DNA of 42,818 bases, taken from the NCBI GenBank assembly GCA_027034005.1, contig JALVJU010000091.1, positions 1 through 42,818 of the forward strand, written 5' to 3'. Of the stretch, positions 11,507 through 29,124 are shown piece by piece; the stretch's first letter is position 1; the number at the start of each line of letters is the position of its first letter. This stretch comes from Marinilabiliaceae bacterium (lineage in GTDB: Bacteria; Bacteroidota; Bacteroidia; Bacteroidales; Marinilabiliaceae). Below the pieces are notes generated by a model. That model worked only from the letters and a program-made list of their open reading frames with translations. It was not told the origin of the DNA and did not search any database. The translations under genes were made by a program, and so were the position numbers.

Positions 11507-11570
11507 AAACAAAAAGGGCGAACACCCACCAATGGCATCCGACCTTTTTTACAATCAAAGCTTATGTATT

Positions 11571-12035
11571 TTAGAAATTTTTCATTTCACTTTCCGAAAA
11601 TTGCTTAACCAACGAAAGCACGGCACTTGAACATCCCTCGGCACCGCCTTTGTATGAGAACACAAGGCTGTAAACGCCGGTCTTACCGCAGATGAATTGA
11701 CACGATTTGTAGTGTTTTCCTTTTTCAAAGTTACTTACAAGAAGCTTGTCTTTAAAGTAAAGCTGCATGATAACTTTTTCAGGATTCTCAGGGGCATCTA
11801 CCACATTAAACTTATACTGGCTCCGGCTTTGAAGAACAACAGAGAACTTAACATATCCTGTTTTCATATCTTTCTTGTCCTTAAGCAACTCAACCTTAAA
11901 ATCCTTAATATACTGGCCGTTGCCCATCTCTTTCAATGCCTGCTTCAATAATGCCTCAGAGTTGCATTCTTGTGCATATCCTGCCAGCGAGAACATTGAA
12001 AAGAGCACCAATAAACTGATAAATATTTTTTTCAT
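11571..12035 (-). CDS. small secreted protein (last gene of the signalling operon)
   Basis: The Met at 12035 gives MKKIFISLLVLFSMFSLAGYAQ signal peptide, and the mature part has four Cys. The ORF is open to 12059. Confidence 0.55.
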   Translation of the reverse strand: MKKIFISLLVLFSMFSLAGYAQECNSEALLKQALKEMGNGQYIKDFKVELLKDKKDMKTGYVKFSVVLQSRSQYKFNVVDAPENPEKVIMQLYFKDKLLVSNFEKGKHYKSCQFICGKTGVYSLVFSYKGGAEGCSSAVLSLVKQFSESEMKNF

Positions 12036-12081
12036 TCCTTTAGAATTTTCAATTGACATCCTTTTCCCTTTTATAACGAAT

Positions 12082-12999
12082 TTACGAAACTATGTATTCC
12101 CTGATCTTCTTGATCTGAGCAATAATGGCTTTCACCTGCTCAGGAGTGATATTCACATGACTGATCTCGTCCTGAATAATGATCAGAGAACCGTCTTTTT
12201 CCATTTTCTTAGGCTCGCCAAACTCAGTTGTGATCTTAACTTTGGAATACAGGCCCTTCAGATCCTGCAAATATGATGAAAGTTCCGTGAAATTCGGGTC
12301 ATTTTTATAATTTTCCAGTATGATAAGCAGGATATTTACAATATCTTTCTGCTCTCCCAGGCGGTTAATCAGTTCTTCATTATTCGTCTGCTCGATGACA
12401 CTTCCTGTAATGTACATTCCCTCGATCCATGTTCCGGCAACGATCAGTGAACTAACGTTACTGCGGTTCTGTTCGCGAAGATATGAATCCATCTCATTAA
12501 AACTTGACACTGATATCTCCATCAAAGAGTCCAGATTGTTGCTGTTGGTTGCAAGGCGCTTCAAAGCAGCAAAGTCGAAAAACTGACCTACTTTAATGCC
12601 ATCTGCAAGATTCTTCACAGCCAACAGGTAGGAAATAACGATAGAGTTCTTATCGAAAGTATTGATATATCCAAGATCGGCTGCGAAAACACCCAGGTTA
12701 AGAGCTCTTTTGAAGCTTGTGTTGTATTTATCCAGGTTGTTGGGATCGTTAAGAATCTTCTGAGAAAAAGCAACTCCGGTAGATTTTATCAGGGAAGCCA
12801 TCTCGACCGGTGACGAAATATTCTGGATTACATCACTGATAACTTCTTCAGATAATTTAAGAGGTGCATCGGTACTAAGCGAGTCTGTACTGATAAGTTC
12901 ATCCGAGTTTCCGGATTTTCCTGACGAATTTCCGGCACAACCTGACAAGAAGGCCGTACCTCCTACTATTAGTGAAATGTATAAGATCTTCTTTAGCAT
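12082..12999 (-). CDS. lipoprotein of unknown function
   Basis: 305 aa. Lipobox AFLSGCAGN followed by a Ser/Gly/Asp-rich linker. 62 nt downstream of the ABC transporter gene. Confidence 0.65.
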   Translation of the reverse strand: MLKKILYISLIVGGTAFLSGCAGNSSGKSGNSDELISTDSLSTDAPLKLSEEVISDVIQNISSPVEMASLIKSTGVAFSQKILNDPNNLDKYNTSFKRALNLGVFAADLGYINTFDKNSIVISYLLAVKNLADGIKVGQFFDFAALKRLATNSNNLDSLMEISVSSFNEMDSYLREQNRSNVSSLIVAGTWIEGMYITGSVIEQTNNEELINRLGEQKDIVNILLIILENYKNDPNFTELSSYLQDLKGLYSKVKITTEFGEPKKMEKDGSLIIIQDEISHVNITPEQVKAIIAQIKKIREYIVS

Positions 13000-13061
13000 G
13001 GTTAAAATAATTTTAAGTTTTAAGTTAACTGATGCTATTATACTATTAAAATCAAAAAAGG

Positions 13062-16000
13062 TTACCTTTTACGCAATTTTAATTCACCCATATAGGTTAA
13101 TCCCTTTCTCAGGAGATCGAAGTAAAGCACGACATACAGCATGATCGTGAGCACCCATACCATGGCGATATTGAACCACAAAGTGTCGAAGAAATGTCCA
13201 AATATGTATTTCTCAGGGGCAAAGAAGTGTGTGCGGAAGTCTACTGCATTCTTCGGCTCCGGTATTTGATAGACCGGATCAACCATCTGTACCAGTTTGT
13301 CCCCGTCACGTAAAATTTTATTCTTTTCGAATACCTGTCTTACGATATCTGAGATACTCTCATTGAAATACTCGTCCTTTACACGCTCAAACCGTTCTCT
13401 GTTAGCACGGATATTTGCTTCAATGAATTTCTCTTTTTTCGTGTTTGCCGCAATGAAAAGCTTACCGTAGTATTTTTTTAGTTTGTCAAGATGTGCAGCC
13501 AGTTTATCGGCCATTTCACCATTGAATTTTCCGGGAGCCAGATCTTCAACCTCCTTGAACTGCATCGAAGGAACCCTTTTGTTCTCTTTTTCTATCTCGT
13601 TTTTCAATAGTTTAAGGTCTGCGACGAACTGTTTGTCATTTTTGTAACCCTTTTGGGTGAGGGCATTTTTTGTGCTTTCAAGAATATCGTTAAGCTCCGG
13701 GATATAGTACACCTGCTTGAAGTCTGCCTGGCTCTCCTGCATCTCTACGTTAAAAATGTTCTTTTTAAAGTTGTTGTGCTTGTATTGCTGTACCATCAGG
13801 CCCTCGTATATCCATCGTGACGGCATCCATTCTGCCACGAAAGGAACCTTGTCGACACTGGTAATGTCCTTGTTCAGCTTGTCGAAAGTAAACATAGCCC
13901 CGCCAAGGACCATCTGCGGGATCATCAGCAGAGGTATTAAGATGTAGATGGTGACAATGGAGTTGAAAGATGCAGAGATGATTAGTCCCATAATATTGGC
14001 AAAGGCAGAAATGGAGAACAGCGCCAACCAGAAATCGAAGGTCATTCCTTTGATGCCAAGAATATTGTTTGCCACCAGGACGAACAGTATCATCTGAATG
14101 GCAGAAAGGGTGAAAAGAAGCAATATCTTGGACAGGAGATAACTAGACCTGCTGAGGTTGAGGAATGATTCCCGTTTGAGTATTTTGGCATCCTTGAATA
14201 TCTCTTCGGCACTTACTATCAGCCCGAAAAACAGAGCCACAACAATAGCCATGAACATGTAAGGAGGTATGTTCACATTCTCCCTGAAGATGTACACATC
14301 AGATTCGGGATCGGCAATGTAGCGGATCAGGTATGCCAGGATAAACCCGAGTATAGGTGCCTCAAGAATGTTCAGGAGGATATACTGCTTATTGCTTATC
14401 TTTGAGAAAAAGTCCCTCAGTGTATATATCTTGAACTGATTGAACCATGACGGGATATTGAGTGACTTGGGCGGCGCCTCGTCCACATCTTCTATCTCCG
14501 GTATCTTTATGTTTTCCTTGTAGTACGAATACCACTCTTCGGGCTTGGTTTTCCTTTGGTTCGTATAATTTCCGTACTCATCGATGACATTTGAATCGAT
14601 GATGTTGAAGATAAGTTCCGGATTTAGGTTGCCACATGTGGGGCACTCTCCGTATTCACTGTTTATCTGGGCATCGAGCTTTTTGAAGTATATCAGCGAC
14701 TCACTCGGGTTCCCGTAATAAACGGGGTAACCGCCCGTGTCAAGGATGTACATTTTGTCGAACATCTTATAGATGTCGGACGAGGGCTGGTGGATGACCA
14801 CGAATATGAGTTTCCCTTTCAGGGCAAGCTCACGGAGAAGGTTCATCACATTCTCCGAGTCTCTTGACGACAAGCCGGAGGTAGGTTCATCCACAAAAAG
14901 TATTGCAGGTTCGCGTATCAGCTCCAGTGCAATGTTAAGGCGCTTTCGTTGCCCGCCACTTATCATTTTGTTCAGGGGGGAGCCCACTTTAAGGTCTTTT
15001 CTCTCGTATAGGCCAAGGTTTATGAGGGTCTTGTTTACCATCTCCGTGATCTCTTCCTTGCTTTTGTCCTTGAAACAAAGGCGCGCATTGTAATAAAGGT
15101 TCTCGAAGACGGTAAGTTCTTCTATCAGCAGATCATCCTGCGGGATAAGTCCAATAACACCCTCCAGCTTTTCTGTGTCTTTATGCAGGTCGTAACCGTT
15201 TATCAGTACCTGTCCTTCGGTAGGTGATTCTATTCCCGACAACACATTCAGAAGGGTTGTCTTACCTGCACCACTGGCACCCATTATCCCGATAAGCCTG
15301 CCCTGTTCCTCAGCAATGTTGATATTCCGCAGGCCTATCGTTCCTGTCCTGAACTGAAACTTTACATCTTTTACACGATATGATATCCGTGTTGAAGTTG
15401 CATCGGACATGAAGTGCCCTACCACATCGGTGTAGTACAGCGGCGGCCCCACAGGCAATTTAATAAAGCTGCCTTTGGGAAAAAGATAAATGCGCCTGTT
15501 GTTGATCAGCAGTCCATTCAGGAACAGTTCCTGATCGCCGGTGTAACGTATAAAGTAAAGATTTGAACTCTCGACTTTAAGGATGAACAGGTCTCCTTGT
15601 AAACCATGTGAGTTAATGAAGATCGCATTTTTAGCCTTGAAATCCTGGGCAGAAAGAATAAGCATCACCTTTCTGTCAAGTTCGGAAACCTTGTTACTAA
15701 CAATGAATGCCTCAATACTTTCAACCTCCTTCTTTGGCAGTTTGAACACATCGGCCACTGTGTTGATGATGGCCATCCTCTGATCTGTAAATTTCCTGTC
15801 GGTATTTACCAATTCGTACAAGCGAACCAGTACTACCACTTTTTGTTCCTTGTTAAGCTTCCTGTTAATCTTTTTGCAGATACCAAGGATCTTAACGGAG
15901 TCTTTCATTGAGGTAAGCTTCACCTTACCATTATCCTCTCCGCCTTTCTTAGCTTTTTCGTCCTTTATATCGGCATGCTTCAGGAAAAGTGAATAATACT

Positions 16001-16136
16001 CATGAACGGCTTCCGTATTCAACTGCTGCTTCAGAAATGTTTTAACATACTCTGTTTCATTCGACTTTACTCCGCCATCCTGCTTTGCAATTAAACCGAA
16101 CAACTGCATTAAGGCTTTTAGTATCTCTTCACTCAT
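13062..16136 (-). CDS. ABCG-type fused ATPase-permease with N-terminal TerB-like and FHA-like modules
   Basis: 1024 aa. N-terminus: LFGLIAKQDGGVKSNETEYVKTFL (TerB-like). Then LYFIRYTGDQELFLNGLLINNRRIYLFPKGSFIKL (FHA-like). ATPase motifs: Walker A GASGAGKTT, signature ISGGQRKRL, Walker B ILFVDEPTSGLS. These are followed by ABC-2 type TM helices. Confidence 0.9.
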   Translation of the reverse strand: MSEEILKALMQLFGLIAKQDGGVKSNETEYVKTFLKQQLNTEAVHEYYSLFLKHADIKDEKAKKGGEDNGKVKLTSMKDSVKILGICKKINRKLNKEQKVVVLVRLYELVNTDRKFTDQRMAIINTVADVFKLPKKEVESIEAFIVSNKVSELDRKVMLILSAQDFKAKNAIFINSHGLQGDLFILKVESSNLYFIRYTGDQELFLNGLLINNRRIYLFPKGSFIKLPVGPPLYYTDVVGHFMSDATSTRISYRVKDVKFQFRTGTIGLRNINIAEEQGRLIGIMGASGAGKTTLLNVLSGIESPTEGQVLINGYDLHKDTEKLEGVIGLIPQDDLLIEELTVFENLYYNARLCFKDKSKEEITEMVNKTLINLGLYERKDLKVGSPLNKMISGGQRKRLNIALELIREPAILFVDEPTSGLSSRDSENVMNLLRELALKGKLIFVVIHQPSSDIYKMFDKMYILDTGGYPVYYGNPSESLIYFKKLDAQINSEYGECPTCGNLNPELIFNIIDSNVIDEYGNYTNQRKTKPEEWYSYYKENIKIPEIEDVDEAPPKSLNIPSWFNQFKIYTLRDFFSKISNKQYILLNILEAPILGFILAYLIRYIADPESDVYIFRENVNIPPYMFMAIVVALFFGLIVSAEEIFKDAKILKRESFLNLSRSSYLLSKILLLFTLSAIQMILFVLVANNILGIKGMTFDFWLALFSISAFANIMGLIISASFNSIVTIYILIPLLMIPQMVLGGAMFTFDKLNKDITSVDKVPFVAEWMPSRWIYEGLMVQQYKHNNFKKNIFNVEMQESQADFKQVYYIPELNDILESTKNALTQKGYKNDKQFVADLKLLKNEIEKENKRVPSMQFKEVEDLAPGKFNGEMADKLAAHLDKLKKYYGKLFIAANTKKEKFIEANIRANRERFERVKDEYFNESISDIVRQVFEKNKILRDGDKLVQMVDPVYQIPEPKNAVDFRTHFFAPEKYIFGHFFDTLWFNIAMVWVLTIMLYVVLYFDLLRKGLTYMGELKLRKR

Positions 16137-16156
16137 AACTTAACAATAAATATCAT

Positions 16157-16537
16157 TTAGTCTTCCAGAACAATGTATTCAAAAGGTATTTCAACAATAT
16201 CGGCATACTCCTCACCTGCTTCGAGCATGTCCTCTTCGTCTTCGTGATAATGCCACTTAATGGTTACCTCCTTGCCGTTTTCCACTATCTCTTCAAATTT
16301 CAGGAGGATATCGAGGATAACCTTTGACGATGCAGTGTTGAAATATTCAAGTTTAAAATCAAATACGGTTTTATCAAGCGGATCTTCAGCATATTCATCT
16401 ATCCAGTCCATGATAGGTTCAAAGAACATATTCACATCTTCGGGAAGGGATCGTCCGGATATTTCAAAATGTCCGTTTTCCTTATCAAGTATTACATTAG
16501 GAGTATCTTCTGTTCCTTTTATATTAATGACTTCCAT
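16157..16537 (-). CDS. SiaC-like regulatory phosphoprotein (DUF1987)
   Basis: 126 aa. GTEDTPNVILDKENGHFEISGRSLPEDV..FFEPIMDWIDEY...FKLEYFNTASSKVILDIL. The Thr in YFNTAS is residue 68. Confidence 0.8.
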   Translation of the reverse strand: MEVINIKGTEDTPNVILDKENGHFEISGRSLPEDVNMFFEPIMDWIDEYAEDPLDKTVFDFKLEYFNTASSKVILDILLKFEEIVENGKEVTIKWHYHEDEEDMLEAGEEYADIVEIPFEYIVLED

Positions 16538-16552
16538 GTGTATAGATTTTAG

Positions 16553-17125
16553 TTATTTACGTTTAATAGTTGATGTTAAGATAAAAAAGCTTATGTCGTC
16601 GTTAAGCTCTTTAAACTGATAACTAAGCTTACTGCCCGTTTTTTTTGCAATATCAATTAGCCCCAGGCCTGCACCTCCTTTGTCTGACAGGCGGCCTTCA
16701 CGCATCTGTTTTTTGTACAGGGCCGACAGGTCTTCCTTGTCAAGGCTGTTCACTGTTTCAAGGCTCTCTTTCAGAGCAGGTATCTTTTCGTTTTTGATCA
16801 CGTTCCCGGTAATGATGTTATACTCGTCCTTACCGTGGCTAACCATGACAATTCCGCGTTTTTCCTCTTCGCCTTCAAGTGAATCAGCATGTTTGCTGAT
16901 ATTCTGAAGACACTCTACCATTACATGAAAGACCTTGCGCTGTACCATGTTCGATTCTTCCGATTTTGCAAGGTTCTTTTCAGTAAGGGAGGTAAACGTC
17001 TTTGTTATCTCCTGAGTAACCACTCCTTCATAAACCAGGTTGATCTCATTAGTTTTCATTGATTTATACATTTGATATGCAAAATCAAGAAAACTATGAC
17101 CTTTATTTTCATTCATCTCACCCAT
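16553..17125 (-). CDS. SiaB-like GHKL-type Ser/Thr protein kinase
   Basis: 190 aa. LVYEGVVTQEITKTFTSLTEKNL, VFHVMVECLQNISKHA (N-box-like), GGAGLGLIDIAKK (G-box-like). Sits between a PP2C phosphatase gene and a DUF1987 gene. Confidence 0.7.
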   Translation of the reverse strand: MGEMNENKGHSFLDFAYQMYKSMKTNEINLVYEGVVTQEITKTFTSLTEKNLAKSEESNMVQRKVFHVMVECLQNISKHADSLEGEEEKRGIVMVSHGKDEYNIITGNVIKNEKIPALKESLETVNSLDKEDLSALYKKQMREGRLSDKGGAGLGLIDIAKKTGSKLSYQFKELNDDISFFILTSTIKRK

Positions 17126-17149
17126 AATAAAAATTTTTCTAAATATATA

Positions 17150-19777
17150 TTATAATTCAATACCTATTAACAGAACGTCATCAACCTGCTTTTCTTCTCC
17201 CATCCAGTCGAAGAAATCCTTCGGGAAAAAACGGGAGTAGTAAGCCATTGTGTGTGACGGATCTTCCACCAACGCCTCTCTTATGCGACGTGCCTGGTAC
17301 TTCTTTTTCTTTTCCAGAGGCCCTCCGGTTTGATCCGGCAGCCCATCAGAAAATATGAATATTTTGTCACCCTTTTTATAGTTGATAATATTGTTCTCAA
17401 AATCTTTTTCTATGCGTCGGGGCAGGGGAGTCCCTCCAATACCTTTTCGCGATCCTTTGTACTCTGTCAATTCTCCGTCACGCACCAGGTACAATGGCCT
17501 GTGTGCACCGGCAAACTGAAGCTCGTTCTTTGCGGGAACTATCTTGCAAAGAGCCAGGTCCATACCATCACGGCCGTTAGCTCCTTCCTGATCCTGCTTA
17601 AGGTTTCTCCTTACTCCGTGATGCAGTCTGTCAAGGATCTCGGCAGCAGTGTAGTCTTTCTCTGTATTCACTATGTTATTCAGAAGGAAATAGCCGATGA
17701 AAGAGAGTAACGCTCCCGGAACGCCGTGTCCGGTACAATCGACGGCAGCAATATAGTAGGTGTCATCTTTCTTAAAGAACCAAGGGAAGTCGCCGCTTAC
17801 CACATCCTTAGGTCTGTAAAATATGAACGAACGAGGGAAGAACTTCTGTAACAGTTTCGTGTCAGGCAGTATCGACGACTGTATCCTCTGTGCATAGTTG
17901 ATACTGTCCGATATCTTCTTGTTTTTCTCTTTTATCTGTTGTTCGATGACCTTTATCTGTGTGATATCGTGAGCTACGAACAGTAGAGATTCAAGTTCCT
18001 TATCCTCGCCGAATTCCGGAATACCCTTTATCTCCATCACCCTTTCACCCTCCGAGCTGGTGATTTCTATCTCCTTCATTATCTCCTTGTGCTCATCACG
18101 TATTTGCACCAGTGATTCACGCACGAACTGAATAAACCTTTCATCGATGTCAAGTTCATTGACACGCTTCTTGATCAGATTAGCAGATGGAACACCCACG
18201 AACGTGGAAACTGCCGGGTTCACGTACACGAGCCGGCCTACAGTGTTAATACGTATGATCATATCAGGAGAGTTCTCCGACAGCGACTGCATCCGGCTCT
18301 TCATGCGCTCTTCTTTCTCTGCACGCTTACGCTCGGTGATATCCCTGGTGTTAAAGATAATTCCCCTGATGGCAGGGTCATGAAGCAGGTTTGTTCCTCT
18401 TGTCTCAAGGAACATTTTCTCTCCTGTTTTTTTCAGATAAGTATATTGTGCTGTCCTCTGACCTCCCGGTGTTTCAAGGAGATACTGGAACAGTTCGTTA
18501 ATCGTCTTGTACCCTTTGGGAGTAAGCATATCAGGATCCATCCCCACAACCTCGTCATCATCGTCATAACCAAGAATGCGCTTTACGGAAGGGCTTTCGA
18601 ATACAAGCTGCTGATGCTCATCGTAAATGGAAATGAACTCCGATGCATTTGTCAAAAGAGCCTCCAGCTTTTTGCGCCCGTGCTCTACCTCCTGCATCTG
18701 TGACTCGAGCATCCTGTTCGACTTCTCAAGCTGCTCCTGAGCCTCCATCATCTCAATAGCATTCTGCTTGAGCTGCTCCTCGTTCTTTTTCAGAGCTGTG
18801 GTCATCTTTTGCGATTCCTCGAGAAGCTGCTTTGTCCTTATGTTTATCCTCAGATTGTAGATTGTCTGCCCTATCATTCCGCTTAGCTCTTCCGACAGGG
18901 TCAGGACCTTTTGCGGAACATCCTCAAAAATGAAAGCTATCTCGTAAACTCCCTGCAACTCTTCTTCCTGTACCAATGGAACTATCAGAAGGCTTTTGGG
19001 CTTTCTGTCGCCAAGTATGCCTGACTGCAAAGTGAAGTAGTCGTCAGGTATCTCAGTCCTGAAAACAAGTTTCTTTTCAAAAGCTGTTTCTCCCACAAGG
19101 CCTTTGCCAACTGGTACCTCTTGCTTCATGAACCTTTGGCGTCCATAGGCATAGGTGGCAATATTTTTCAGTGATCCGTTCCCGTTGTACAGATAGAACG
19201 CTCCCTGAACTGCCGATGTGTACTTGATGATATTTTTCAATACCTCTATCGAAAGAGTTTCAAAGTCGTTGTGTATCCTAAGTATCTCGGATATCAGGTC
19301 CTTCCCTTTTGCTATCCAGTTATGAACATCTGCCTTCTCCCTGTTGTATTTCAGGTTTTCGCCGAGAGTGACAAGCACTTTTGACAAAGAGCTGTCATAT
19401 TCGGTGGAATCAAGAGAAAGGTCCCCGCGTCCTATTTTCTCGGCAAGCTGCACATTCTGCTTTGAATATTTATGTAGTTTTTCAAGCTCCTTGCGTAACT
19501 TCTGTGTCTTGTATTTGTGATAATTTAACGCAAAAAGGACACCTAACGGTAACGACAAGATAATCAGGTCGATAAACCATACGAATGTCCGGGCATGGAT
19601 CAGCAAAATAGAATTTAAAGAAAAATCATAACCGGACAGTGACGAAATTCCCGCCCACGAGGACATGTACAGGAAAATCACCAGAAACAACAAAATGTAT
19701 CTCTCCGTAACGGAAAGCACAGAGTTTGAAAAGAATTTTCTGGTCTGTTTTAATATTTTTTTCTTCTCTTTTGGCAT
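17150..19777 (-). CDS. membrane-anchored GAF-PAS-PAS sensor fused to a PP2C (SpoIIE-type) phosphatase, SiaA-like
   Basis: 875 aa. N-terminal TM helices, GAF (LVGETAF..LLIVPLV), Glu/Gln coiled coil, two PAS (FNTRDITERKRAE; VAHDITQIKVIE). PP2C motifs: SGDFPWF, AAVDCTGHGVPGALLS, IFSDGLPDQ, DDVLLIGIEL. Confidence 0.9.
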   Translation of the reverse strand: MPKEKKKILKQTRKFFSNSVLSVTERYILLFLVIFLYMSSWAGISSLSGYDFSLNSILLIHARTFVWFIDLIILSLPLGVLFALNYHKYKTQKLRKELEKLHKYSKQNVQLAEKIGRGDLSLDSTEYDSSLSKVLVTLGENLKYNREKADVHNWIAKGKDLISEILRIHNDFETLSIEVLKNIIKYTSAVQGAFYLYNGNGSLKNIATYAYGRQRFMKQEVPVGKGLVGETAFEKKLVFRTEIPDDYFTLQSGILGDRKPKSLLIVPLVQEEELQGVYEIAFIFEDVPQKVLTLSEELSGMIGQTIYNLRINIRTKQLLEESQKMTTALKKNEEQLKQNAIEMMEAQEQLEKSNRMLESQMQEVEHGRKKLEALLTNASEFISIYDEHQQLVFESPSVKRILGYDDDDEVVGMDPDMLTPKGYKTINELFQYLLETPGGQRTAQYTYLKKTGEKMFLETRGTNLLHDPAIRGIIFNTRDITERKRAEKEERMKSRMQSLSENSPDMIIRINTVGRLVYVNPAVSTFVGVPSANLIKKRVNELDIDERFIQFVRESLVQIRDEHKEIMKEIEITSSEGERVMEIKGIPEFGEDKELESLLFVAHDITQIKVIEQQIKEKNKKISDSINYAQRIQSSILPDTKLLQKFFPRSFIFYRPKDVVSGDFPWFFKKDDTYYIAAVDCTGHGVPGALLSFIGYFLLNNIVNTEKDYTAAEILDRLHHGVRRNLKQDQEGANGRDGMDLALCKIVPAKNELQFAGAHRPLYLVRDGELTEYKGSRKGIGGTPLPRRIEKDFENNIINYKKGDKIFIFSDGLPDQTGGPLEKKKKYQARRIREALVEDPSHTMAYYSRFFPKDFFDWMGEEKQVDDVLLIGIEL

Positions 19778-19793
19778 AAAAAACAGTGTCTTC

Positions 19794-20555
19794 TTATTCG
19801 GTTATCAGATCCAGCAATTTATGATTTATCTTATCCCAGTTTTCCTTTAACGGTATTGGTTTGAACGTAGCTAACTCTATAACTCCGACTGCCCTGTTCT
19901 CATCAGCAACAGGAAGGATATAGATATATCTCGGCTTCGCCTCTCCCAGCCCGCTGTATCCCGAAAAATAATCTTCAGGAACCTCTTCGAGCTCTATCAC
20001 CTCCCGTTCGTTCAAGGCTTCGCCGTGAAGCCCTTCACCTATGTTGAAAGGAGTGACCGGCTCATCCTTTCGGATGCCGTAATTCCCTTCTACGGAAAAA
20101 TCCTGAGATTGTTTGTCGTAGACAAAGAAAAGGCCGGTTATGACCTCTAAGTTGTCCCCAAGTACCGACAATGCCTTGTTACAAAACTTGCTTTTTTCGG
20201 CAAAAGGCGGCAAATTAACAAATAAATTTTCAATATCTTCAAAAATACCTGTACCGGATTTCTTTACAGAATTATTATCCCTTGCCTCAAGTTCTTTCTT
20301 AAGATGATCTATATCTATAGTCAAACTTTCTATCTCAGAACCCTTATCCGATAACTTTTTGTGCAATCTCCGGAAAACATGATCTGAATAGTAAAGCAGC
20401 GCCAGTACTCCTGCTACTGAAACAAATTCGAACATATAGAAAGACACCGGCATATGCTCGGGCGAAATTAGATATTTTGCCAAAGCAAAAACAAAAATGA
20501 CTACGCTGAGCACGATGATACATGTCTGTTCCTTTTTTAACTTGTCTCTTTTCAT
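19794..20555 (-). CDS. two-TM protein with coiled coil and small C-terminal GAF-like domain, no output domain
   Basis: 253 aa. TM helices (IIVLSVVIFVFALA; FVSVAGVLALLYY), coiled coil, then GLHGEAL...YILPVADENRAVGVIELATF resembling a GAF core. Confidence 0.55.
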   Translation of the reverse strand: MKRDKLKKEQTCIIVLSVVIFVFALAKYLISPEHMPVSFYMFEFVSVAGVLALLYYSDHVFRRLHKKLSDKGSEIESLTIDIDHLKKELEARDNNSVKKSGTGIFEDIENLFVNLPPFAEKSKFCNKALSVLGDNLEVITGLFFVYDKQSQDFSVEGNYGIRKDEPVTPFNIGEGLHGEALNEREVIELEEVPEDYFSGYSGLGEAKPRYIYILPVADENRAVGVIELATFKPIPLKENWDKINHKLLDLITE

Positions 20556-21145
20556 ACGGCTAACTGGTTAAGATAATCTGCGATCTTCTCAGGTGTCAAA
20601 ACATGATCGGGTCGAAACAGCTTCAAAGCTGCTTTGGTCATGGTGTCGATGTCACAACTGTCAGGATCCTGGATTATGGTCGTCCCGTTCTTGTCGTGAA
20701 TATCTTTCAATCCGCTTGCCCCATCTTTATTTGCCCCGGTAAGGATTATTCCCAGGACTTTGTCACGGTATGTCTGTGCTGCCGACGAAAATGTATGGTC
20801 AATGGCAGGCCGACTGTGGTTCATTGGCTCCTCGGTTGACAAATGAAAAGTATTGTCGTACTCGATGAACAGATGATAGTTCGACGGTGCCAGATAAGCC
20901 CTGTTACCTGAAATATGGTCTTTGTCGTTCGGCTCAACAACTTTGATATTAGATTTTATGTTCAGCCCTTCCACCAGTCCGGAACGCACATGTTTAAGCC
21001 TGTGCAGACAAATAATGACAGGAATGGAAAAGCCGGGATCGATCTTCGAAAGTATTTTTGATACAACCGAAAAACTGCCCGCCGAACCGCCAATAACTAC
21101 TGCTTTATATTTTTTGTTGTCAATCATTGCTCCAGATAATTTCAA
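20552..21145 (-). CDS. CheB-type glutamate methylesterase catalytic domain only (no receiver)
   Basis: 197 aa. VVIGGSAGSFS (Ser), VIICLHRLKH (His), ILTGANKDGASGL (Asp). No REC domain upstream in frame. The start may be the Met at 21127. Confidence 0.8.
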   Translation of the reverse strand: MKLSGAMIDNKKYKAVVIGGSAGSFSVVSKILSKIDPGFSIPVIICLHRLKHVRSGLVEGLNIKSNIKVVEPNDKDHISGNRAYLAPSNYHLFIEYDNTFHLSTEEPMNHSRPAIDHTFSSAAQTYRDKVLGIILTGANKDGASGLKDIHDKNGTTIIQDPDSCDIDTMTKAALKLFRPDHVLTPEKIADYLNQLAV

Positions 21146-22016
21146 AACCGTGTTTCTTAAATACCTTTTCTTTTGTGTTCAGACACTCCAGCTTTGCATC
21201 AAAAGATTCCGGTATCCGTTCTTTGGCCCCGATGGCGATAATTCCGCCTGGCAGAAGTGCATCCCAAAACCCGGCGATACTACGCTCAGAAACTTCCTTG
21301 TCGTAATAAAGCATGTTGTTCCTGAACATGATGACAGATGTATTTTTAGGTGCACCTGTATTTAGAAAATGCCCCCGGACAGTTCGTACATTCTTCAATA
21401 GCGAATTTTTCAAAACAAAAACGTTATCCTCAAGGGAATAGTAATCCTCAAATACCCCGGAACCCTCAATCCTTACATAGTTACTGCTGTTAAGCTGAAT
21501 ATTCCGGTTGTTAAGAATGCCCTTTTCAATCTCGCTCAGCCTTTCCTCTGATACATGCTGACATATAACATTCACCATGTCCCTTATCCCCAGTTCATTA
21601 ACAAGAATGAGGAAAGAAAAGACTTCTTCGCCGGTAGATACTTCCGGGAACCAGACATTGATATTCTCGTTGGTTGACAAGCACCTGACAAGAGGCCTCA
21701 GATATCTCCAGAACCCCGGATCGCGGAACATCTCTGTTGTATCGACAGGGAAATCGTAAAAAAGACGGGCCTTGTAATCTTCCGTTTCAAGCATCTGCCT
21801 GAACATGTCAGAATTACGGATATTATGTTTTTTGAAAATATATGATAACCTCCTTTTCAGGAATGATATCGGCATATGATCATACGGCACACCGGTGCTT
21901 TCCGCCATAACTGACGAAAGCTCCTTCACTTCCCTGATACCGAAACCGGCACTCACACCGGCAACTTTCTCAGTACTCGAAATGGAAGGCATTGTTCTTG
22001 ATAAAAACCGGGCCAT
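21120..22016 (-). CDS. CheR-like protein with degenerate SAM-binding motifs (probable pseudoenzyme)
   Basis: The CheR fold is recognisable (TEMFRDPGFW; VIMFRNNMLYYD). Motif I reads VWFPEVSTGEE instead of VWSAGCSSGEE, and post-I reads VICQHVSEE instead of (A/G)TD(L/I). The start is uncertain (Met at 22016, 21992 or 21908). Confidence 0.7.
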   Translation of the reverse strand: MARFLSRTMPSISSTEKVAGVSAGFGIREVKELSSVMAESTGVPYDHMPISFLKRRLSYIFKKHNIRNSDMFRQMLETEDYKARLFYDFPVDTTEMFRDPGFWRYLRPLVRCLSTNENINVWFPEVSTGEEVFSFLILVNELGIRDMVNVICQHVSEERLSEIEKGILNNRNIQLNSSNYVRIEGSGVFEDYYSLEDNVFVLKNSLLKNVRTVRGHFLNTGAPKNTSVIMFRNNMLYYDKEVSERSIAGFWDALLPGGIIAIGAKERIPESFDAKLECLNTKEKVFKKHGFEIIWSND

Positions 22017-22827
22017 TTTTTATAAATCTTGTTTTAAAAAAACCTGTCAATCCTTCGTGATTACCAAGGATCAGCATTCCTCCGTTCGTTAATTGGTCAT
22101 GAAATCGTTTTAATATCCTGGATTGCAGGCTTGCATTGAAATATATCAGTACATTCCTACAAAATATAACGTCAAACTTCTGATAGCTGTTAAGTTCTCC
22201 TTTTACCAGGTCGTGCCTTTTAAAGTCTACATTCTCCTTCAAAAAGTCCCTGACCTTTATGATATCTTTATCCTCCTGGAATTCAAAATATTTATCAAAA
22301 CGTACCTTATCGGCAAGCTTCTTCTTGTTTATCACAGCATTAAAGTTGTCAATGATCTTCATGTTGTATCTGTGATTGTACTCGCCCTTCTTTGCATCTT
22401 TAAGCATTTTGTTGTTCAGGTCGGTGGCAACTATCCTGCTTTTGTCAAGCAGTCCCATCTCACTAAGGATTACATTGTTTGAGTAAACTTCCTGTCCTGA
22501 GGAGCATCCCGCATGCCATACATTCACAACATTCTTTTTCTTTAGAGGAACGAAATGCCTTGAATAAAGCTCATGCCATATTCCGGGATCCCGGAAAAAT
22601 TCAGTGGTATTCACTGTAATCTCCTGTACAATGTTTTCAACAAACAGAGAATCGGTCCTTGTCTTATCCATAAGTTCATCAAGACTCAGCTTATGGTCGA
22701 CCAGCACCTTGTTTATCCTTCGGTAAATGGAACTGTCAGAGTATTCACAGAAATCATACTGCGAATATTTCTTTAGCTCTTTCAGATATGTTTTTATCTC
22801 CGATATGTTGTCAACCTTGTATGTCAT
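21970..22827 (-). CDS. CheR-type protein-glutamate O-methyltransferase (second copy)
   Basis: 285 aa. TEFFRDPGIW, VWHAGCSSGQEVYS, IVATDLNNKML, VIFCRNVLIYFN. Confidence 0.85.
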   Translation of the reverse strand: MTYKVDNISEIKTYLKELKKYSQYDFCEYSDSSIYRRINKVLVDHKLSLDELMDKTRTDSLFVENIVQEITVNTTEFFRDPGIWHELYSRHFVPLKKKNVVNVWHAGCSSGQEVYSNNVILSEMGLLDKSRIVATDLNNKMLKDAKKGEYNHRYNMKIIDNFNAVINKKKLADKVRFDKYFEFQEDKDIIKVRDFLKENVDFKRHDLVKGELNSYQKFDVIFCRNVLIYFNASLQSRILKRFHDQLTNGGMLILGNHEGLTGFFKTRFIKNGPVFIKNNAFHFEY

Positions 22828-22832
22828 TCCCC

Positions 22833-24698
22833 TTAAAACAATTCTACCTCAACGTTTTGAATAAATGCAGTGAATGAATGGTCATCGCCAACCTTGGCTT
22901 CCGAAAGCAGGAACAGCACGGGGATCTCCTCACCGAATTTGGTCAGGATAGGCACTTCGCGCCTTTCACCCACAATCTTTTCCTTTTCAGGATTCACAAA
23001 AGCCGAAACGAACTCATCATTCTTTGCCGTGTCTTTACTGAACAACAGCGCTACCTGTTTGCCGAGGACTTCCTGGCGATCGTAACCGAAAAGCTTTTCT
23101 GCTGCCACGTTAAAGAATTCAATGATACCCTCCTTGTTGGTAGTAAGTATGGCATCCAAAGCGCCTTCAAGAGTCTTCTCGTTTCTGATCTTCACTGCCT
23201 CTATCTCTTTGAACTGCTCTTTAACTTCATTACGTGCCTGCTCGAGCATTATTCCAAGTTCTTCCTTACTCTTCTTAAGTTTCTCTTCCATCTTCACCTG
23301 TTCGGTGATATCGTAGTCGAGGCTTAGTATCTTGACGATCTCACCTTCGTGATCCATTACGGGAGTGTATGTTGTAAGCAGGTAGATCGCCTCACCCATT
23401 TTGGTCCTTCTCTTCACACGGCCTTTAAAATTCTTACCGTTCCTGAGATCGGCAAGTATCTTGTCCAGTTCAGGAAGATCGTCCTTGAAAAAGAATATTT
23501 TAATATTTTGGTTCTCCACCTCTTCGATGCTGTACTTAAATGCATCAAGGAAATTCCTGTTAACCGATATCAGTGTTCCGTCGGTCTCGAACTCCGAACT
23601 GATAGCCGAATGGTCGATAGCCTCAAGAATACCTTTCATTTCAAGTTCACGGCGGTCACTCTCCTCCTGTGTTGCCTGCATCTCTTCAAGGTTTTGGCGC
23701 AACTCCTCTTCCTGCTGTGCCATTTTTTCGGCCTGCTCCTGAGTCTCTTTCAGCAGCTTGCTGGTACGGATATTTGTCTGCACTGCCGAAATGGTCGATG
23801 CAATACTTTCGGCGATCTTTTCTATGAATTCTATCTCATATTTCTCGAACTCGCTGAACGATGCCAGCTCGATAACACCGAATATCTTATCATTGGCTTT
23901 AAGAGGCACTATCAAAACTGCCGAAGCATTTGCTTCTCCCAGACCGCTTGTGATATTCATGTAGTCATTGGGCACATCGGTAAGGTAGATCGTCTCCTTC
24001 TCAAGGGCACACCGCCCTATCAGTCCTTCATCCCATTTGATAGTTTTTTCGGCATATTTTTTCCTGTCGTAAGCAATGAATGCCTTAAGTTCAAAATACG
24101 GATCACCCTCCTCAGGAGTATTAAGCAGGAAGAATCCCGCCTGATTAATCTTCAGGTAGTTTACGATGTAGTGAATAATGTTGAAAGATAGTTCTTCCAG
24201 ATCGTTGTTGGTCTGGCGAAGAAGCTCCCCGAACTGTGCCAGCCCGTTGGTCACCCAGGTACGCTGTTCCTCTTCTATGCGGCGCTGCTCCTCCTCTTTT
24301 CTGTTTTTGATAAGGTATTCCTTTAGCCCAACCAGCGACTGTCCCAACTTATCATTTTTCGATGATATGGGAATGGGGCTTTCCAGGTCACCTTTCCTGA
24401 GGTTATCAATAAAGTCAAGCACCATGTTTGTCCTGCCCGACTCCTTTCGGAGCTGCTTGTTCTGTTTCTTTAGTTTTTTTGCAACTCCGCCGCCAAAATA
24501 ATATCCTGCAATGGCAGTTAAAACAGGCAGGAACAAAATAACCCACAACCCCGGGATATCTGACATGATATTTTTCAACTCATTGAATCCCCGCGTGTTC
24601 TGGCTTAACAAAACTGCAACCAACAGTACAACAAGGCCAAATGTAAAGCCTCGTAACATATATTTTTTCTGAATAGTTTTTGATTTAACTTTTTTCAT
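22833..24698 (-). CDS. membrane-anchored GAF-PAS-PAS sensor protein without output domain
   Basis: Two TM helices, GAF (LIGRCALEKETIYL...VLIVPLKANDKIFGVIELASF), Glu/Gln coiled coil, two PAS (LSLDYDITEQVKME; GIIEFFNVAAEKLFGYDRQEVLGK). The track starts at TTG 24704, but ATG at 24698 (MKKVKSK) is likelier. Confidence 0.8.
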   Translation of the reverse strand: MKKVKSKTIQKKYMLRGFTFGLVVLLVAVLLSQNTRGFNELKNIMSDIPGLWVILFLPVLTAIAGYYFGGGVAKKLKKQNKQLRKESGRTNMVLDFIDNLRKGDLESPIPISSKNDKLGQSLVGLKEYLIKNRKEEEQRRIEEEQRTWVTNGLAQFGELLRQTNNDLEELSFNIIHYIVNYLKINQAGFFLLNTPEEGDPYFELKAFIAYDRKKYAEKTIKWDEGLIGRCALEKETIYLTDVPNDYMNITSGLGEANASAVLIVPLKANDKIFGVIELASFSEFEKYEIEFIEKIAESIASTISAVQTNIRTSKLLKETQEQAEKMAQQEEELRQNLEEMQATQEESDRRELEMKGILEAIDHSAISSEFETDGTLISVNRNFLDAFKYSIEEVENQNIKIFFFKDDLPELDKILADLRNGKNFKGRVKRRTKMGEAIYLLTTYTPVMDHEGEIVKILSLDYDITEQVKMEEKLKKSKEELGIMLEQARNEVKEQFKEIEAVKIRNEKTLEGALDAILTTNKEGIIEFFNVAAEKLFGYDRQEVLGKQVALLFSKDTAKNDEFVSAFVNPEKEKIVGERREVPILTKFGEEIPVLFLLSEAKVGDDHSFTAFIQNVEVELF

Positions 24699-25152
24699 AG
24701 TCAATAAGATAATTCAGTGTTTTCCTTTTTATTTGTGAACTCTTATACGGCAGAATTTCATTAAGGTTTGGATTGATAGGAAAATATTGAAGCACGTGCA
24801 AAATCTGGAGATTATGCAAATAGATTTTCAGGAGGATTGTGTTATAACACACTTCATTTTCGCTTTGCTAATAAGGTTCCCTTTCGTTTTGTCTTTAAAG
24901 GATACTAAGGTTATGTCAGCGGTGTTTTGATATTCTTCCTACACCTCTGGCGACTATAGGGGAATGCCAACGCGCGAAAGCTCTCTTTTCGGGAATTTAA
25001 GGGTGTGGGGATGGGCATGCAATACCTCATTTATACTTAACATTTCACTAAGGTTTAATGGAAAGGATAAGATTTTCCGAAAAATACCTCAGAAAAATTT
25101 AGAAAGTATCAATGCAGCACAGGCAGGTTAAAGAAAAAAGATGTACTCCTGT

Positions 25153-26238
25153 CTATTTGTGCAGGTTTGCAACGATGTAAGGGGCAATTTTATCAAGGGG
25201 TAAAATGGTCTCGGCGGCATCAAGTTTTATTGCCTCTTTGGGCATACCGAACACAACGCACGAGTGTTCATCCTGGGCAATTGTATGAGCTCCTGATTCC
25301 TTTAGTTCAAGAAGGCCTTTGGCTCCGTCGTTGCCCATTCCCGTCATAAGTATTCCGAGAGCATTCTTTCCAGCATATCTTGCAGCCGAACGGAACAGCA
25401 CATCGACGGACGGACGGTGCCTGTTCACGAGCGGGCCCTCTTTTACCTCCACAGAGTACTCTTTACCCACTCTTTTCAGCAGCATATGTTTGTTCCCGGG
25501 AGCAACAAGAACACGTCCCTGATACAGCCTGTCGCCGTTCTCTGCCTCTTTAACCTCAAGTTTGCATATGTTGTTAAGACTGTTGGCAAATGATTTTGTG
25601 AATCCTTCAGGCATGTGCTGAACAATGGCTATACCCGGCGATTTCTTCGGCAGTTGTGCCAGGAAATTACGGATCGCTTCGGTGCCTCCGGTAGAAGCTC
25701 CGAGAACAATTATCTTATCAGTATTTATGATACGTTTGTATGCCGATACCTTTTCAAGTATCACATCGGCAGAGTACTTTGGCGGCACAACGGGAGTCTG
25801 CCGTGAAGCTCTTATTTTTTTCCGTTTCAGCTTAGCTTTTGAGGCTGCCTTAACAGCATCACACAGCATGATTTTCGACTCATTGAAGAACTGAGCCGCA
25901 TTCATGGCCGGCTTACCTATGATCTCACTGGCACCGTACTCAAGCGCTTTCATGGCAACCTCTGTTCCCTGTGTGGTAAGCGAAGAAATAACCACCACAG
26001 GAATAGGGTTCTGTGACATAATTTTCCGCAGAAAAGTGAGACCATCCATTCTCGGCATCTCGATATCGAGGGTGATCACATCAGGAACCTCCTTCATGAT
26101 CTTCTTCACGGCAATTATCGGATCGGCAGCTGTTGCAATGACAGTAATATCAGGGTCAGACTCCAGGATAGAAGAGAGGCTCTGACGCACTACCGCCGAA
26201 TCATCAACAACCAAAACACGAATTTTATCTTTCATCAT
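25153..26238 (-). CDS. cheB: chemotaxis response regulator protein-glutamate methylesterase
   Basis: 361 aa. REC ([26 protein letters not shown]) plus esterase ([34 protein letters not shown]). Confidence 0.95.
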
Positions 26239-26340
26239 ACTGCCTTTCGAACGGATAAGTTACTAAAACTTTTTCTAAAATAATATGTCATTTGTGTGCA
26301 AACACACAAAAAAGATGAGTTCGCTCAATTCTCATCCTGT

Positions 26341-26817
26341 TCAATATGCCTTCTTCTCAAGGAACTTATGCCGTACTTCACCTGTGTCGGTGAAGAACAG
26401 TATCTTTCTACCTCTCTTTCCCCCTGTGCTTGACGCAACCACGGGAATACCTTTCTCTTCCAGAACTATGCGTGCCATGCGGATGTTGCGTTCACCTATC
26501 ATGTAGCCCGTTCCGCTGCTGCCTTCCAGCATATCTCCGCCGCCAAACACTTTTGCCACAAGATCCTCCCTTCGGCTCCCCAATGCTAACAATTTATCTA
26601 CAAGTTTGTTTATCGCAATGTTGCCATATTTGGGAGAAGCAAGGTCGTTTCCGTTCCAGGTGGGCAGCATGTAATGGTTTATTCCGCCTATTTTCTGGCG
26701 TTTGTCCCAAATACAAATTGCCACACAGGAACCAAGTATGGTTTTCACTACATAAGGTTCCTTACTGACAAAAAGAGATGAAGGGTATAAAAAATATTGT
26801 AAATAATTTTTATTCAT
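26341..26817 (-). CDS. cheD: chemoreceptor glutamine deamidase
   Basis: 158 aa. ILGSCVAICIWD, GGINHYMLP, AKVFGGGDM. Confidence 0.9.
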   Translation of the reverse strand: MNKNYLQYFLYPSSLFVSKEPYVVKTILGSCVAICIWDKRQKIGGINHYMLPTWNGNDLASPKYGNIAINKLVDKLLALGSRREDLVAKVFGGGDMLEGSSGTGYMIGERNIRMARIVLEEKGIPVVASSTGGKRGRKILFFTDTGEVRHKFLEKKAY

Positions 26818-26828
26818 CTATCGTTCCC

Positions 26829-27728: not shown

Positions 27729-27754
27729 AGTATGATCTATTTTGTATTTTTTAG

Positions 27755-28639: not shown

Positions 28640-28644
28640 ATCAG

Positions 28645-29124
28645 CTACTCTATTCCTTCAATAATTTTATCCAGTTCGATGATGTCTTTCTCCGAGAATA
28701 TCTTATTCGAATCCAGTATCATCACCAGAATATCATTCAACTTGTAAGTTGATGAAATATATTTTGGTTTGTAATCATTCTCAATGGGCTTAAGCTGTTC
28801 CAGTTCCGGTTCAAACACATCCGAAACCGTATCAACAATTATTCCCACCTTCGATGTTGAGTTCTTCAGTTCGTTTATCACCTCTATCACGACAATGCAT
28901 GTCTGAGGTGTCACGTTTATCTTACCAAGATTGAATTTTACCGCAGTATCGATCAACGGGATAACCTCATCCCTGTATTCCAGAACACCCGTAACATACG
29001 GCAACGTCTCCGGTATACCCTCCGGCTCTGTATACTCCTTGATCTCAACCACCTTTTCCACGTGAATGCCAAAGGTGTTATCATTAACTTTAAAAGTGAG
29101 ATATGAGTTCGTACTTTGATCCAT
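28645..29124 (-). CDS. cheW: chemotaxis coupling protein CheW
   Basis: 159 aa. YLTFKVNDNTFGIHVEKVVEI, VLEYRDEVIPLID, GIIVDTVSDV. Confidence 0.9.
   Translation of the reverse strand: MDQSTNSYLTFKVNDNTFGIHVEKVVEIKEYTEPEGIPETLPYVTGVLEYRDEVIPLIDTAVKFNLGKINVTPQTCIVVIEVINELKNSTSKVGIIVDTVSDVFEPELEQLKPIENDYKPKYISSTYKLNDILVMILDSNKIFSEKDIIELDKIIEGIE

Follow-up and report, generated by a model that had tools for sequence, protein, structure and literature searches.

Which proteins are modified by a CheR-type methyltransferase and a CheB-type methylesterase when both are encoded in a gene unit that has no chemoreceptor? CheR and CheB target glutamates in the coiled coils of methyl-accepting chemotaxis proteins (MCPs). 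In a 42,818-nucleotide (nt) stretch of DNA from a Marinilabiliaceae bacterium (hereafter the window; GenBank assembly GCA_027034005.1, contig JALVJU010000091.1, positions 1 to 42,818 of the forward strand), genes for both enzymes stand in one cassette with homologues of SiaA, SiaB, and SiaC, which together form a threonine-phosphorylation partner switch, and with an ATP-binding cassette (ABC) transporter. The gene content of this cassette, its conserved synteny, the catalytic motifs of its enzymes, and a helix motif in its membrane sensors were directly observed. They would fit a pathway in which methylation-tuned sensors act on the SiaABC switch, which in turn gates the transporter; based on sequence comparison and computational analysis, we regard the chances of this overall picture as even.

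Eleven consecutive minus-strand open reading frames (ORFs) span positions 24704-11571 in the longest-ORF map of the window (Table 1). Their spacings, given in a first-pass annotation as 5, -47, -26, -4, 16, 24, 15, 20, 62, and 22 nt, matched the longest-ORF calls exactly, and profile searches (Pfam, NCBIfam) bore out the domain order proposed there: a membrane-bound GAF-PAS-PAS sensor without output domain (S1), a CheR (CheR2), a degenerate CheR paralogue (CheRx), a stand-alone CheB (CheBs), a small membrane GAF protein (TM-GAF), a GAF-PAS-PAS sensor fused to a PP2C phosphatase (SiaA), SiaB, SiaC, the transporter, a lipoprotein, and a small exported protein. As the same annotation had stated, MCPsignal, CheA, and CheW were found in none of the eleven proteins by profile searches, and a complete che operon, confirmed with Pfam, lies on the same strand 448 nt upstream of the first cassette gene. 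The overlaps of -47 and -26 nt are a product of longest-ORF start codons and are probably shorter, because orthologue alignments favored a later ATG for the second CheR and for CheB. The true start of the first gene is probably the ATG at 24698.

A SiaB alignment search, with one genome per species, yielded 80 loci, all from Bacteroidales/Marinilabiliales, which were annotated with the window proteins as queries. Genes downstream of SiaB were counted in the 67 loci with enough sequence and genes upstream of SiaB in 66 loci. Downstream, SiaC was present in 67/67 loci, the TerB-ABC transporter and the lipoprotein each in 65/67, and the small exported protein in 64/67. Upstream, SiaA was found in 59/66 loci, CheB in 50/66, both together in 49/66, and S1 orthologues in 42/66. 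CheR, CheRx, CheB, and TM-GAF occurred together in 43 loci and were jointly missing from 16; TM-GAF occurred in 48 of the 50 CheB-containing loci and in none of the 16 loci without CheB. Gene order and tight spacing were shared by approximately 50 species-level genomes, with cross-species median intergenic distances of 3-62 nt. The cassette is therefore very probably one conserved functional unit. Its constant core consists of SiaB, SiaC, the transporter, the lipoprotein, and the exported protein; a SiaA-type sensor is usual, and CheR, CheRx, CheB, and TM-GAF are optional. The earlier claim of a single unit thus held with respect to conservation, but the cassette is modular and its CheR/CheB block is an optional input.

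Homologues of CheRx were found only in Marinilabiliales/Bacteroidales. Relatives with 55, 46, and 36% identity had the full eleven-gene order plus a che operon, a relative with 33% identity (L005) lacked S1 and a che operon but otherwise had the same cassette, and one with 29% identity (L006) had the order sensor-CheR-CheB-TMGAF-SiaA-SiaB-SiaC, without the ABC transporter. Co-conservation of the CheR/CheRx/CheB genes with the PP2C-SiaB-SiaC genes, on which the first-pass proposal depended, was seen in the 49 loci counted above and in this last variant. A che operon adjoined the cassette in only 9/66 loci; the cassette does not depend on one. Cultured carriers of the full cassette include Anaerophaga thermohalophila, Thermophagus xiamenensis, and Saccharicrinis, and cultured Carboxylicivirga carries the SiaB-SiaC-transporter core only.

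The input side varied among loci. Where the CheR/CheB block was present, an output-less GAF-PAS sensor often accompanied it, encoded ahead of CheR or between CheR and CheRx. Other inputs were a sensor and SiaA only, a divergent orphan CheR, an MCP before SiaB, or nothing nearby (Carboxylicivirga). In two Bacteroidales loci (L023:3700-5520 and L025:7607-9373), an MCP with HAMP and MCPsignal domains stands directly before SiaB-SiaC-ABC and replaces the SiaA/CheR/CheB genes, which indicates that MCP-type receptors can feed this output; the MCP of L025 has an additional weak sCache match. Locus L078 (7006-12828) has CheR-CheRx-CheB directly before SiaB-SiaC, without SiaA or TM-GAF, and a C10 cysteine peptidase sorted by the type IX secretion system follows SiaC in place of the ABC transporter. 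In L011-L013 and L016 (Carboxylicivirga and a Bacteroidales metagenome-assembled genome), the full core is present, a SiaA-type phosphatase is absent within 10 kb upstream, and the upstream genes encode PorZ-like, beta-propeller, and oxidoreductase proteins. Divergent orphan CheR genes without CheB (L071, L073, L076, L080) occur with sensors of ~860-950 amino acids (aa) that end in K-Y-x-x-W-L-x-S-F after a low-complexity stretch, loosely like the xWxxF tether of MCPs; a related Y-x-x-W-[LI] C-terminus was found in L044, L047, L070, and L084.

The CheR/CheB block and the post-GAF helix

Alignment of CheR2 with its orthologues showed intact S-adenosylmethionine (SAM)-binding motifs (VWHAGCSSGQE, ATD, and FCRNVLIYF conserved). 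The degenerate SAM motifs noted earlier in the second CheR recurred in the window protein and 54 orthologues: the AGC of motif I is replaced by PEV and the aspartate of ATD is lost, with TEMFRDP and FRN retained. These features suggest that CheRx is probably a non-catalytic paralogue, either a pseudo-enzyme or an adaptor. In 60 orthologues of CheBs, the segments GGSAGS, LHRLKH, and NKDGA, which we take to carry the Ser-His-Asp triad, were kept, at 95% or more in most columns. A profile search found no receiver domain in CheBs, so that this protein would not be controllable by CheA in the usual way.

Hydropathy analysis indicated that S1, TM-GAF, and SiaA each begin with two transmembrane (TM) segments separated by a very short loop, and a profile search of the three proteins found no HisKA, HATPase, or REC domain. 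The phosphatase domain of the SiaA-like protein was recognized by the SpoIIE model (59.4 bits, cut-off 25). Its match to the SiaA model NF038263 (E 2e-47, 162 bits, cut-off 700) was limited to the C-terminal 268 residues (aa 605-872), and the protein is therefore not an equivalog of SiaA.

In both S1 and SiaA, a signaling helix follows the GAF domain. Methylation sites of MCPs classically obey the rule Glu-Glu-x-x-Ala-Ser/Thr, and the middle Glu pair of the S1 helix fits this rule, which suggests that the post-GAF helix of S1 is a candidate methyl-accepting site. S1 from CheB-containing loci had the consensus QEEE[ML]RQN[ML]EE[LM]xATQEE. Core positions 331-334, 336-337, 340-341, and 345-347 were invariant in the 39 aligned sensors from these loci (one further row was gapped at the helix), and the same columns varied among nine S1-like sensors whose loci lack CheB. 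The helix consensus of the SiaA family is NEE[QE]LRQNAEEMRATQEELEKS, of which the window protein has a decayed copy (NAIEMMEAQEQ); one heptad position of SiaA alternates between Q (28) and E (24), like MCP sites. CheR/CheB loci without S1 had the canonical motif in SiaA, the clade of the window had a canonical S1 and a decayed SiaA copy, and in most loci without CheB the motif was decayed in both the S1-type sensor and SiaA. The pattern EE..A[ST].EE was present in 40/52 S1-type and 38/77 SiaA proteins and in 0/4598 other ORFs of the loci. It occurred in 37/40 S1-type sensors with CheB versus 0/8 without, and in 36/60 versus 2/11 SiaA proteins; the L006 sensor has two copies.

Several results count against the pathway outlined above. 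The window SiaA has no EExxA[ST]-like site, and some species have SiaB-SiaC-ABC without SiaA nearby or with an MCP upstream. In an exhaustive search with the 55-residue S1 helix, the representative proteins that matched numbered at least 1000; E was ≤1e-10 for 113, and many had two to nine matched stretches. Nine helix-matching proteins checked with Pfam were GAF/PAS arrays in which an output domain was absent, the named ones from Cytophagales. CheR or CheB domains were found in none of the 150 best motif-bearing proteins, and CheR/CheB genes within 10 kb in 0/4 contexts examined. The motif is therefore a general Bacteroidota GAF/PAS helix, not private to CheR/CheB loci. In a divergence-matched comparison, identity of the SiaA motif to the consensus was 0.74-0.77 for CheB loci versus 0.61, a modest difference, and the correlation between motif and CheB is confounded by phylogeny because loci without CheB fall in few clades. 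The helix motif thus suggests methylation of the sensors and is not decisive.

Proteins of the type GAF-[signaling helix-PAS]n reached 2405 aa, with up to eight copies of an EE..AT.EE-type helix. In P0301 (Bernardetiaceae), five helix copies follow a single GAF at an exact spacing of 70 residues, and in L092, one of the four contexts (L090-L093), a small separate HisKA-HATPase gene follows the motif-bearing gene. Four further ideas about the sensors were discarded. With CheR/CheB in none of the four contexts, the helix motif was rejected as a general marker of CheR/CheB neighborhoods, and the idea that CheB-CheR fusion kinases share the motif was dropped after none of the 150 best motif proteins proved to have CheR/CheB. 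A C-terminal CheR/CheB tether pentapeptide on S1 was not supported, since the protein terminates within a PAS domain (…NVEVELF) and has no linker. For its PAS domains, heme (FixL/DosP) or LOV chemistry was set aside: NCBIfam matches reflected generic PAS similarity far below cut-offs, and visual inspection showed neither the heme-binding His nor the LOV Cys motif.

CheR2 and CheBs might instead be extra adaptation enzymes for ordinary MCPs, adjacent or encoded elsewhere, with the SiaABC genes as neighbors through co-expression or a shared membrane array and with unmethylated sensors. The window and its closest relatives have a complete, MCP-containing che operon immediately upstream (median gap 82 nt), and cross-talk with this MCP, which in the window bears ordinary methylation-type sites, may therefore occur in this clade. 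However, that operon has its own CheR, CheB-REC, and CheD, no che operon is present within 10 kb in 41/50 loci with CheB, and the receiver domain through which CheB is coupled to CheA is missing from CheBs. The MCPs directly before SiaB-SiaC-ABC in L023 and L025 and the abundance of the helix motif where CheR/CheB are absent would suit this explanation. Against it, CheR, CheRx, and CheB were gained and lost along with TM-GAF and always beside SiaA (but compare L078, which has no SiaA), and MCP-less CheR/CheB pairs beside GAF sensors occur in other phyla, sensor methylation having been proven in one case (PMC4574943). On balance, we consider methylation of MCPs an unlikely role for CheR2 and CheBs.

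SiaC and the transporter

SiaB and SiaC of the window were assigned at the family level (Table 1), and both remained below the cut-offs of the equivalog models (kinase_SiaB, 91.8 bits, cut-off 225; SiaC, 91.5 bits, cut-off 150). The sequence YFN-T68-ASSK of SiaC was conserved in 83 orthologues, and the window protein has Y65-F66-N67-T68, with the Thr68 codon at 16334-16336. In Pseudomonas aeruginosa SiaC, Thr68 is the phosphosite and only the unphosphorylated protein binds the helical stalk of the neighboring SiaD; the authors of that study proposed that DUF1987 proteins regulate the products of adjacent genes (PMC8457831). In the literature, no paper was found that ties SiaC/DUF1987 to CheR or to an ABC transporter.

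The gene adjacent to that of SiaC encodes the half-transporter. Its nucleotide-binding domain (NBD) covers aa 269-420, and hydropathy indicated six TM segments, five at aa 586-745 and the last at aa 982-1000, with a loop of 235 aa before the last. TIGR00955 (White/ABCG type) matched aa 249-800 with 258 bits, below its cut-off of 736, and the best PDB sequence matches were NBDs of ABCA, PDR, ABCB, and ABCG proteins. Judged by the topology of ABCG and ABC-2 proteins, the loop is probably extracytoplasmic, and the lipoprotein and the exported protein may contact it there. The lipoprotein has 1711 homologues, every one unnamed, and no family match in Pfam or NCBIfam; it is built as a helical bundle with a small C-terminal beta/alpha domain (AlphaFold predicted local distance difference test, pLDDT, 69), for which Foldseek found no usable PDB match (best E 0.06, probability 0.18). 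No family matches were found for the small exported protein. A defense-system reading of the TerB-ABC protein was rejected, PADLOC having returned generic ABC ATPase matches only.

The N-terminal region of the transporter had been labeled TerB/FHA-like. At the fold level this label was retained: an AlphaFold model of residues 1-262 (pLDDT 86.8) contains a helical part matching a TerB-like protein of Porphyromonas, TerB being also recognized by Pfam, and a beta part whose best Foldseek matches were FHA domains (probability ~1, target-normalized TM-score ~0.3-0.6). Ser190 and Asn207-Gly208 are conserved in the latter. The FHA half of the label was not recovered by Pfam, which found no FHA domain in the transporter. 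The Foldseek matches were weak (E 0.02-0.3, none ≤0.001), and the canonical phosphothreonine-binding Arg and His are not conserved.

The lack of canonical phosphothreonine-binding residues would suit a different output, in which the target of SiaC is encoded elsewhere (for example, a diguanylate cyclase or anti-sigma factor) and the genes for the ABC transporter, lipoprotein, and secreted protein are merely co-transcribed, their expression being the output. A diguanylate cyclase is the target of P. aeruginosa SiaC (PMC8457831), and SiaB-SiaC are followed by unrelated genes in L006, L072, and L078. However, the transporter follows SiaC in 65/67 species loci regardless of the input genes and has a well-conserved cytoplasmic regulatory N-terminus of 260 aa. 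Profile searches of the unit and the remaining window sequence detected neither a GGDEF domain nor a sigma or anti-sigma gene. An unlinked target is, in our assessment, rather improbable. Still more doubtful is that the CheR/CheB pair modifies another cassette protein (TM-GAF, SiaC, SiaB, or the TerB-like domain of the transporter), or that CheB is only a Gln deamidase, with the helix as a structural linker: the presence of TM-GAF tracks CheB most strictly, with translational coupling to CheB (median gap 3 nt), and the helix motif is widespread without CheR/CheB, but the TM-GAF orthologue alignment has no conserved Glu/Gln outside the GAF core, EExxA[ST]-type sites are absent from TM-GAF and the ABC protein as is the strict EE..A[ST].EE from SiaB and SiaC, and, among CheR-type enzymes, the only substrate characterized outside the MCPs is a signaling helix after a GAF domain (PMC4574943).

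In the pathway that we favor, CheR2 would methylate the heptad-spaced Glu pairs of the post-GAF helix and the receiver-less CheB would demethylate or deamidate them. The methylated helix would be mainly that of S1 in the window organism and, in most relatives, that of SiaA as well. S1, TM-GAF, and SiaA may form a mixed membrane complex, and methylation would set or adapt its PP2C activity, an effect equivalent to that of RsbM on RsbK, and the degenerate CheR and the small TM-GAF may be non-catalytic partners in the CheR/CheB block. As established for the family, the SiaB-type kinase would phosphorylate Thr68 of SiaC and the SiaA-like PP2C sensor would dephosphorylate it. One phospho-form of SiaC would then bind the TerB/FHA-like N-terminal region of the neighboring transporter and switch its activity, as gene adjacency in 65/67 loci and the published behavior of SiaC suggest; the lipoprotein and the small exported protein may work with the large extracytoplasmic loop. 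Two links carry this scheme, from helix methylation to PP2C and from SiaC to the transporter, and each, taken separately, has an even or slightly better chance of being correct. Evidence for the former consists of en-bloc co-inheritance, motif resemblance, and the RsbK/RsbM precedent.

A more far-reaching version, which we put forward tentatively and rate as possible at less than even chances, is that CheR/CheB adaptation acting on non-MCP GAF/PAS sensors gives a methylation memory to a PP2C/kinase/SiaC switch, and that the phospho-state of SiaC directly gates the transporter by way of its TerB/FHA-like domain. Bacteroidales would thereby regulate transport with temporal adaptation independently of CheA, and the output-less GAF-[helix-PAS]n proteins, a very large family in Bacteroidota, would form another class of methyl-accepting receptors, a second one. 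If the favored pathway holds, reversible glutamate methylation would extend beyond MCP-CheA arrays to Ser/Thr-phosphatase partner switches, the cassette would supply the methylesterase that is absent from RsbK/RsbM, the sole studied non-MCP case, and an ABC transporter would be a second target class for the widespread and barely studied SiaC/DUF1987 switch. At least 60 Bacteroidales species, sampled from marine, sediment, gut, and rumen sources, share the transporter and its two dedicated exported partners. Cultured carriers make two questions testable, namely whether methylation adaptation occurs outside MCP arrays and whether SiaC has targets besides diguanylate cyclases.

Cassette boundaries and neighboring genes

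Operon boundaries were scanned with sigma-70-type promoter and terminator patterns, which performed at chance level; only the hairpin after the last gene, 30 nt past its stop codon, was worth noting. The Bacteroidetes -7 motif TAnnTTTG was not above chance, with zero minus-strand matches in the 448-nt gap, and no Rfam family reached its gathering score anywhere in the window. This non-coding gap (24705-25152) between CheB-REC and the first cassette gene had neither an Rfam match nor a minus-strand terminator-like hairpin nor a TAnnTTTG promoter motif. The median length of the corresponding gap in ten relatives was 82 nt, and the transcript may therefore extend 5' of the first cassette gene. 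Just 3' of the cassette (11017-11506), two 155-aa ORFs overlap fully on opposite strands, with zero family matches.

In the upstream che operon, a 299-aa histidine kinase (HisKA and HATPase_c; 26829-27728, minus strand) without sensor or TM segment lies between CheR and CheD, a position kept in all relatives with an adjacent che operon. The head of the operon (32188-34821, minus strand) encodes a YfiR-like periplasmic protein (DUF4154; NF053591, 110 bits), the MCP, and a weakly matching STAS protein, followed by CheY. A YfiR-MCP-STAS head is unusual for a che cluster and points to a non-motility function; the YfiR-MCP-STAS-CheY set recurs near SiaB-SiaC-ABC in L025. The remainder of the window contains housekeeping genes.

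Table 1. Coordinates of the cassette, its sequence features, and the flanking che operon in the window.
Feature	Position	Strand	Basis
Sensor S1: two N-terminal TM segments (aa 16-34, 50-68), GAF, signaling helix, two PAS, no output domain	22833..24704	-	Pfam GAF_2 and PAS, hydropathy
S1 signaling-helix motif, aa 331-352, QEEELRQNLEEMQATQEESDRR	23649..23714	-	Glu-Glu pairs at i, i+7, i+14; one exact EExxAT
CheR2, CheR-type methyltransferase	21970..22827	-	PF01739, E 5.8e-43
CheRx, degenerate CheR paralogue	21120..22016	-	PF01739, E 8.6e-14
CheBs, stand-alone CheB methylesterase/deamidase domain	20552..21145	-	PF01339, E 1.2e-47; 197 aa, CheB_methylest only
TM-GAF, small membrane GAF protein: two TM segments, coiled coil, GAF	19794..20555	-	GAF_2, E 1.1e-7; hydropathy
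SiaA-like sensor phosphatase: two TM segments, GAF, signaling helix, two PAS, PP2C (SpoIIE)	17150..19777	-	Pfam, NF038263, hydropathy
SiaA signaling helix, aa 329-353, LKKNEEQLKQNAIEMMEAQEQLEKS	18719..18793	-	Column profile and per-locus comparison
SiaB-family protein kinase	16553..17125	-	NF038262, 173.2 bits (cut-off 85); DUF6272, E 1e-43
SiaC-family (DUF1987) phosphoprotein	16157..16537	-	PF09345, 143.6 bits (cut-off 24.5), E 2.9e-42
ABC half-transporter, 1024 aa	13062..16136	-	Pfam TerB, ABC_tran (111 bits), ABC2_membrane (72 bits)
TerB-like helical domain of transporter, aa 1-153	15678-16136	-	
FHA-like beta domain of transporter, aa 158-235	15432-15665	-	AlphaFold model and Foldseek
Conserved lipoprotein	12082..12999	-	Lipobox LSGC, N-terminal hydrophobic segment
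Small exported Cys-containing protein	11571..12059	-	N-terminal hydrophobic segment
Terminator-like hairpin and T-run	11519..11541	-	Consensus scan, pattern match only
che-type operon	25153..34246	-	Pfam: MCP, STAS, CheY, CheA, two CheW, CheR, sensor-less histidine kinase, CheD, CheB-REC

Comparison with known systems

The first-pass statement that no characterized pathway has this wiring was too strong in view of RsbM/RsbK (PMC4574943) and Rv1747 (PMC3138270). Closest in gene order is SiaABCD of P. aeruginosa, which likewise combines a membrane PP2C sensor, a SiaB-family kinase, and a DUF1987 protein with Asn67/Thr68 in the same order, and in which the target of SiaC is encoded by the following gene (PMC8457831). 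It differs in that its output gene encodes the diguanylate cyclase SiaD, whereas the cassette has a TerB/FHA-like ABC transporter and two exported proteins. Moreover, the cassette includes a CheR/CheB block, its phosphatase has a GAF and two PAS domains, and the SiaA and SiaC equivalog models remained below their cut-offs.

A precedent for methylation of a sensor that is not an MCP is found in Bacillus cereus, in which RsbM, a CheR-type enzyme, methylates the signaling helix of RsbK (CHASE3-HAMP-GAF-S-helix-kinase-REC) and thereby controls the PP2C RsbY and RsbV/RsbW, without an esterase (PMC4574943). The cassette shares with this system a CheR-type gene beside a non-MCP sensor with a GAF domain and a signaling helix, the helix being placed where RsbM methylates RsbK. 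RsbK, however, is a hybrid histidine kinase; it has an inhibitory receiver domain and phosphorylates a REC-PP2C protein, whereas the cassette PP2C is fused to its sensor; RsbM is an orphan without esterase, whereas the cassette has a dedicated CheB and a degenerate second CheR. The partner switch of the sigma-B pathway is RsbV/RsbW (STAS/GHKL) and its output a sigma factor, in contrast to SiaB/SiaC and the transporter.

Adaptation in chemotaxis (CheR, CheB, MCP) involves the same enzyme families, and the EExxA[S/T] site, the seven-residue spacing, and the Q/E-alternating position have their counterparts in the cassette sensors. Unlike that system, the cassette has no MCP signaling domain, CheA, or CheW and its CheB has no receiver; its putative substrates are GAF/PAS sensors and its output is a phosphatase instead of CheA.

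Regulation of an exporter by threonine phosphorylation has been described for Rv1747 of Mycobacterium tuberculosis, an FHA-ABC exporter that is controlled by Thr phosphorylation and a small FHA-binding protein (PMC3138270, PMC5549992). Rv1747/PknF and the cassette have in common a half-size ABC exporter whose membrane domain is ABC-2/ABCG-like, an N-terminal cytoplasmic regulatory region with an FHA or, in the cassette, FHA-like fold, and an adjacent Ser/Thr kinase gene. In contrast to Rv1747, the cassette transporter has one degenerate FHA-like domain after a TerB-like domain, a 235-aa loop that is probably extracytoplasmic, and two exported partners; the kinase is SiaB-type instead of Hanks-type, and the phosphoprotein is a separate SiaC.

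Outside Bacteroidota, a tblastn search of plasmids returned MCP-less clusters. On plasmid NZ_CP044217.1 of the alphaproteobacterium Mesorhizobium terrae (L088, 99587-105550), a CHASE3-GAF-HisKA-HATPase-REC3 sensor is encoded with CheR, a 188-aa stand-alone CheB, and a REC-HWE kinase, and plasmid 2 of Deinococcus deserti (L089) has a cluster of a HAMP-repeat-GAF-kinase and CheR. Both resemble the cassette in having CheR, or CheR with a receiver-less CheB, beside a GAF sensor; their outputs, however, are histidine kinases and response regulators, and their sensors lack the EE..A[ST] motif. In the literature, no characterization was found for GAF-kinase-CheR(-CheB) clusters other than RsbK/RsbM. 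The combination of a CheR/CheB pair, a PP2C-fused GAF/PAS sensor, SiaB/SiaC, and an ABC transporter with two exported partners has not been described previously; each of its parts belongs to a known family, and each of its links has a characterized analogue.

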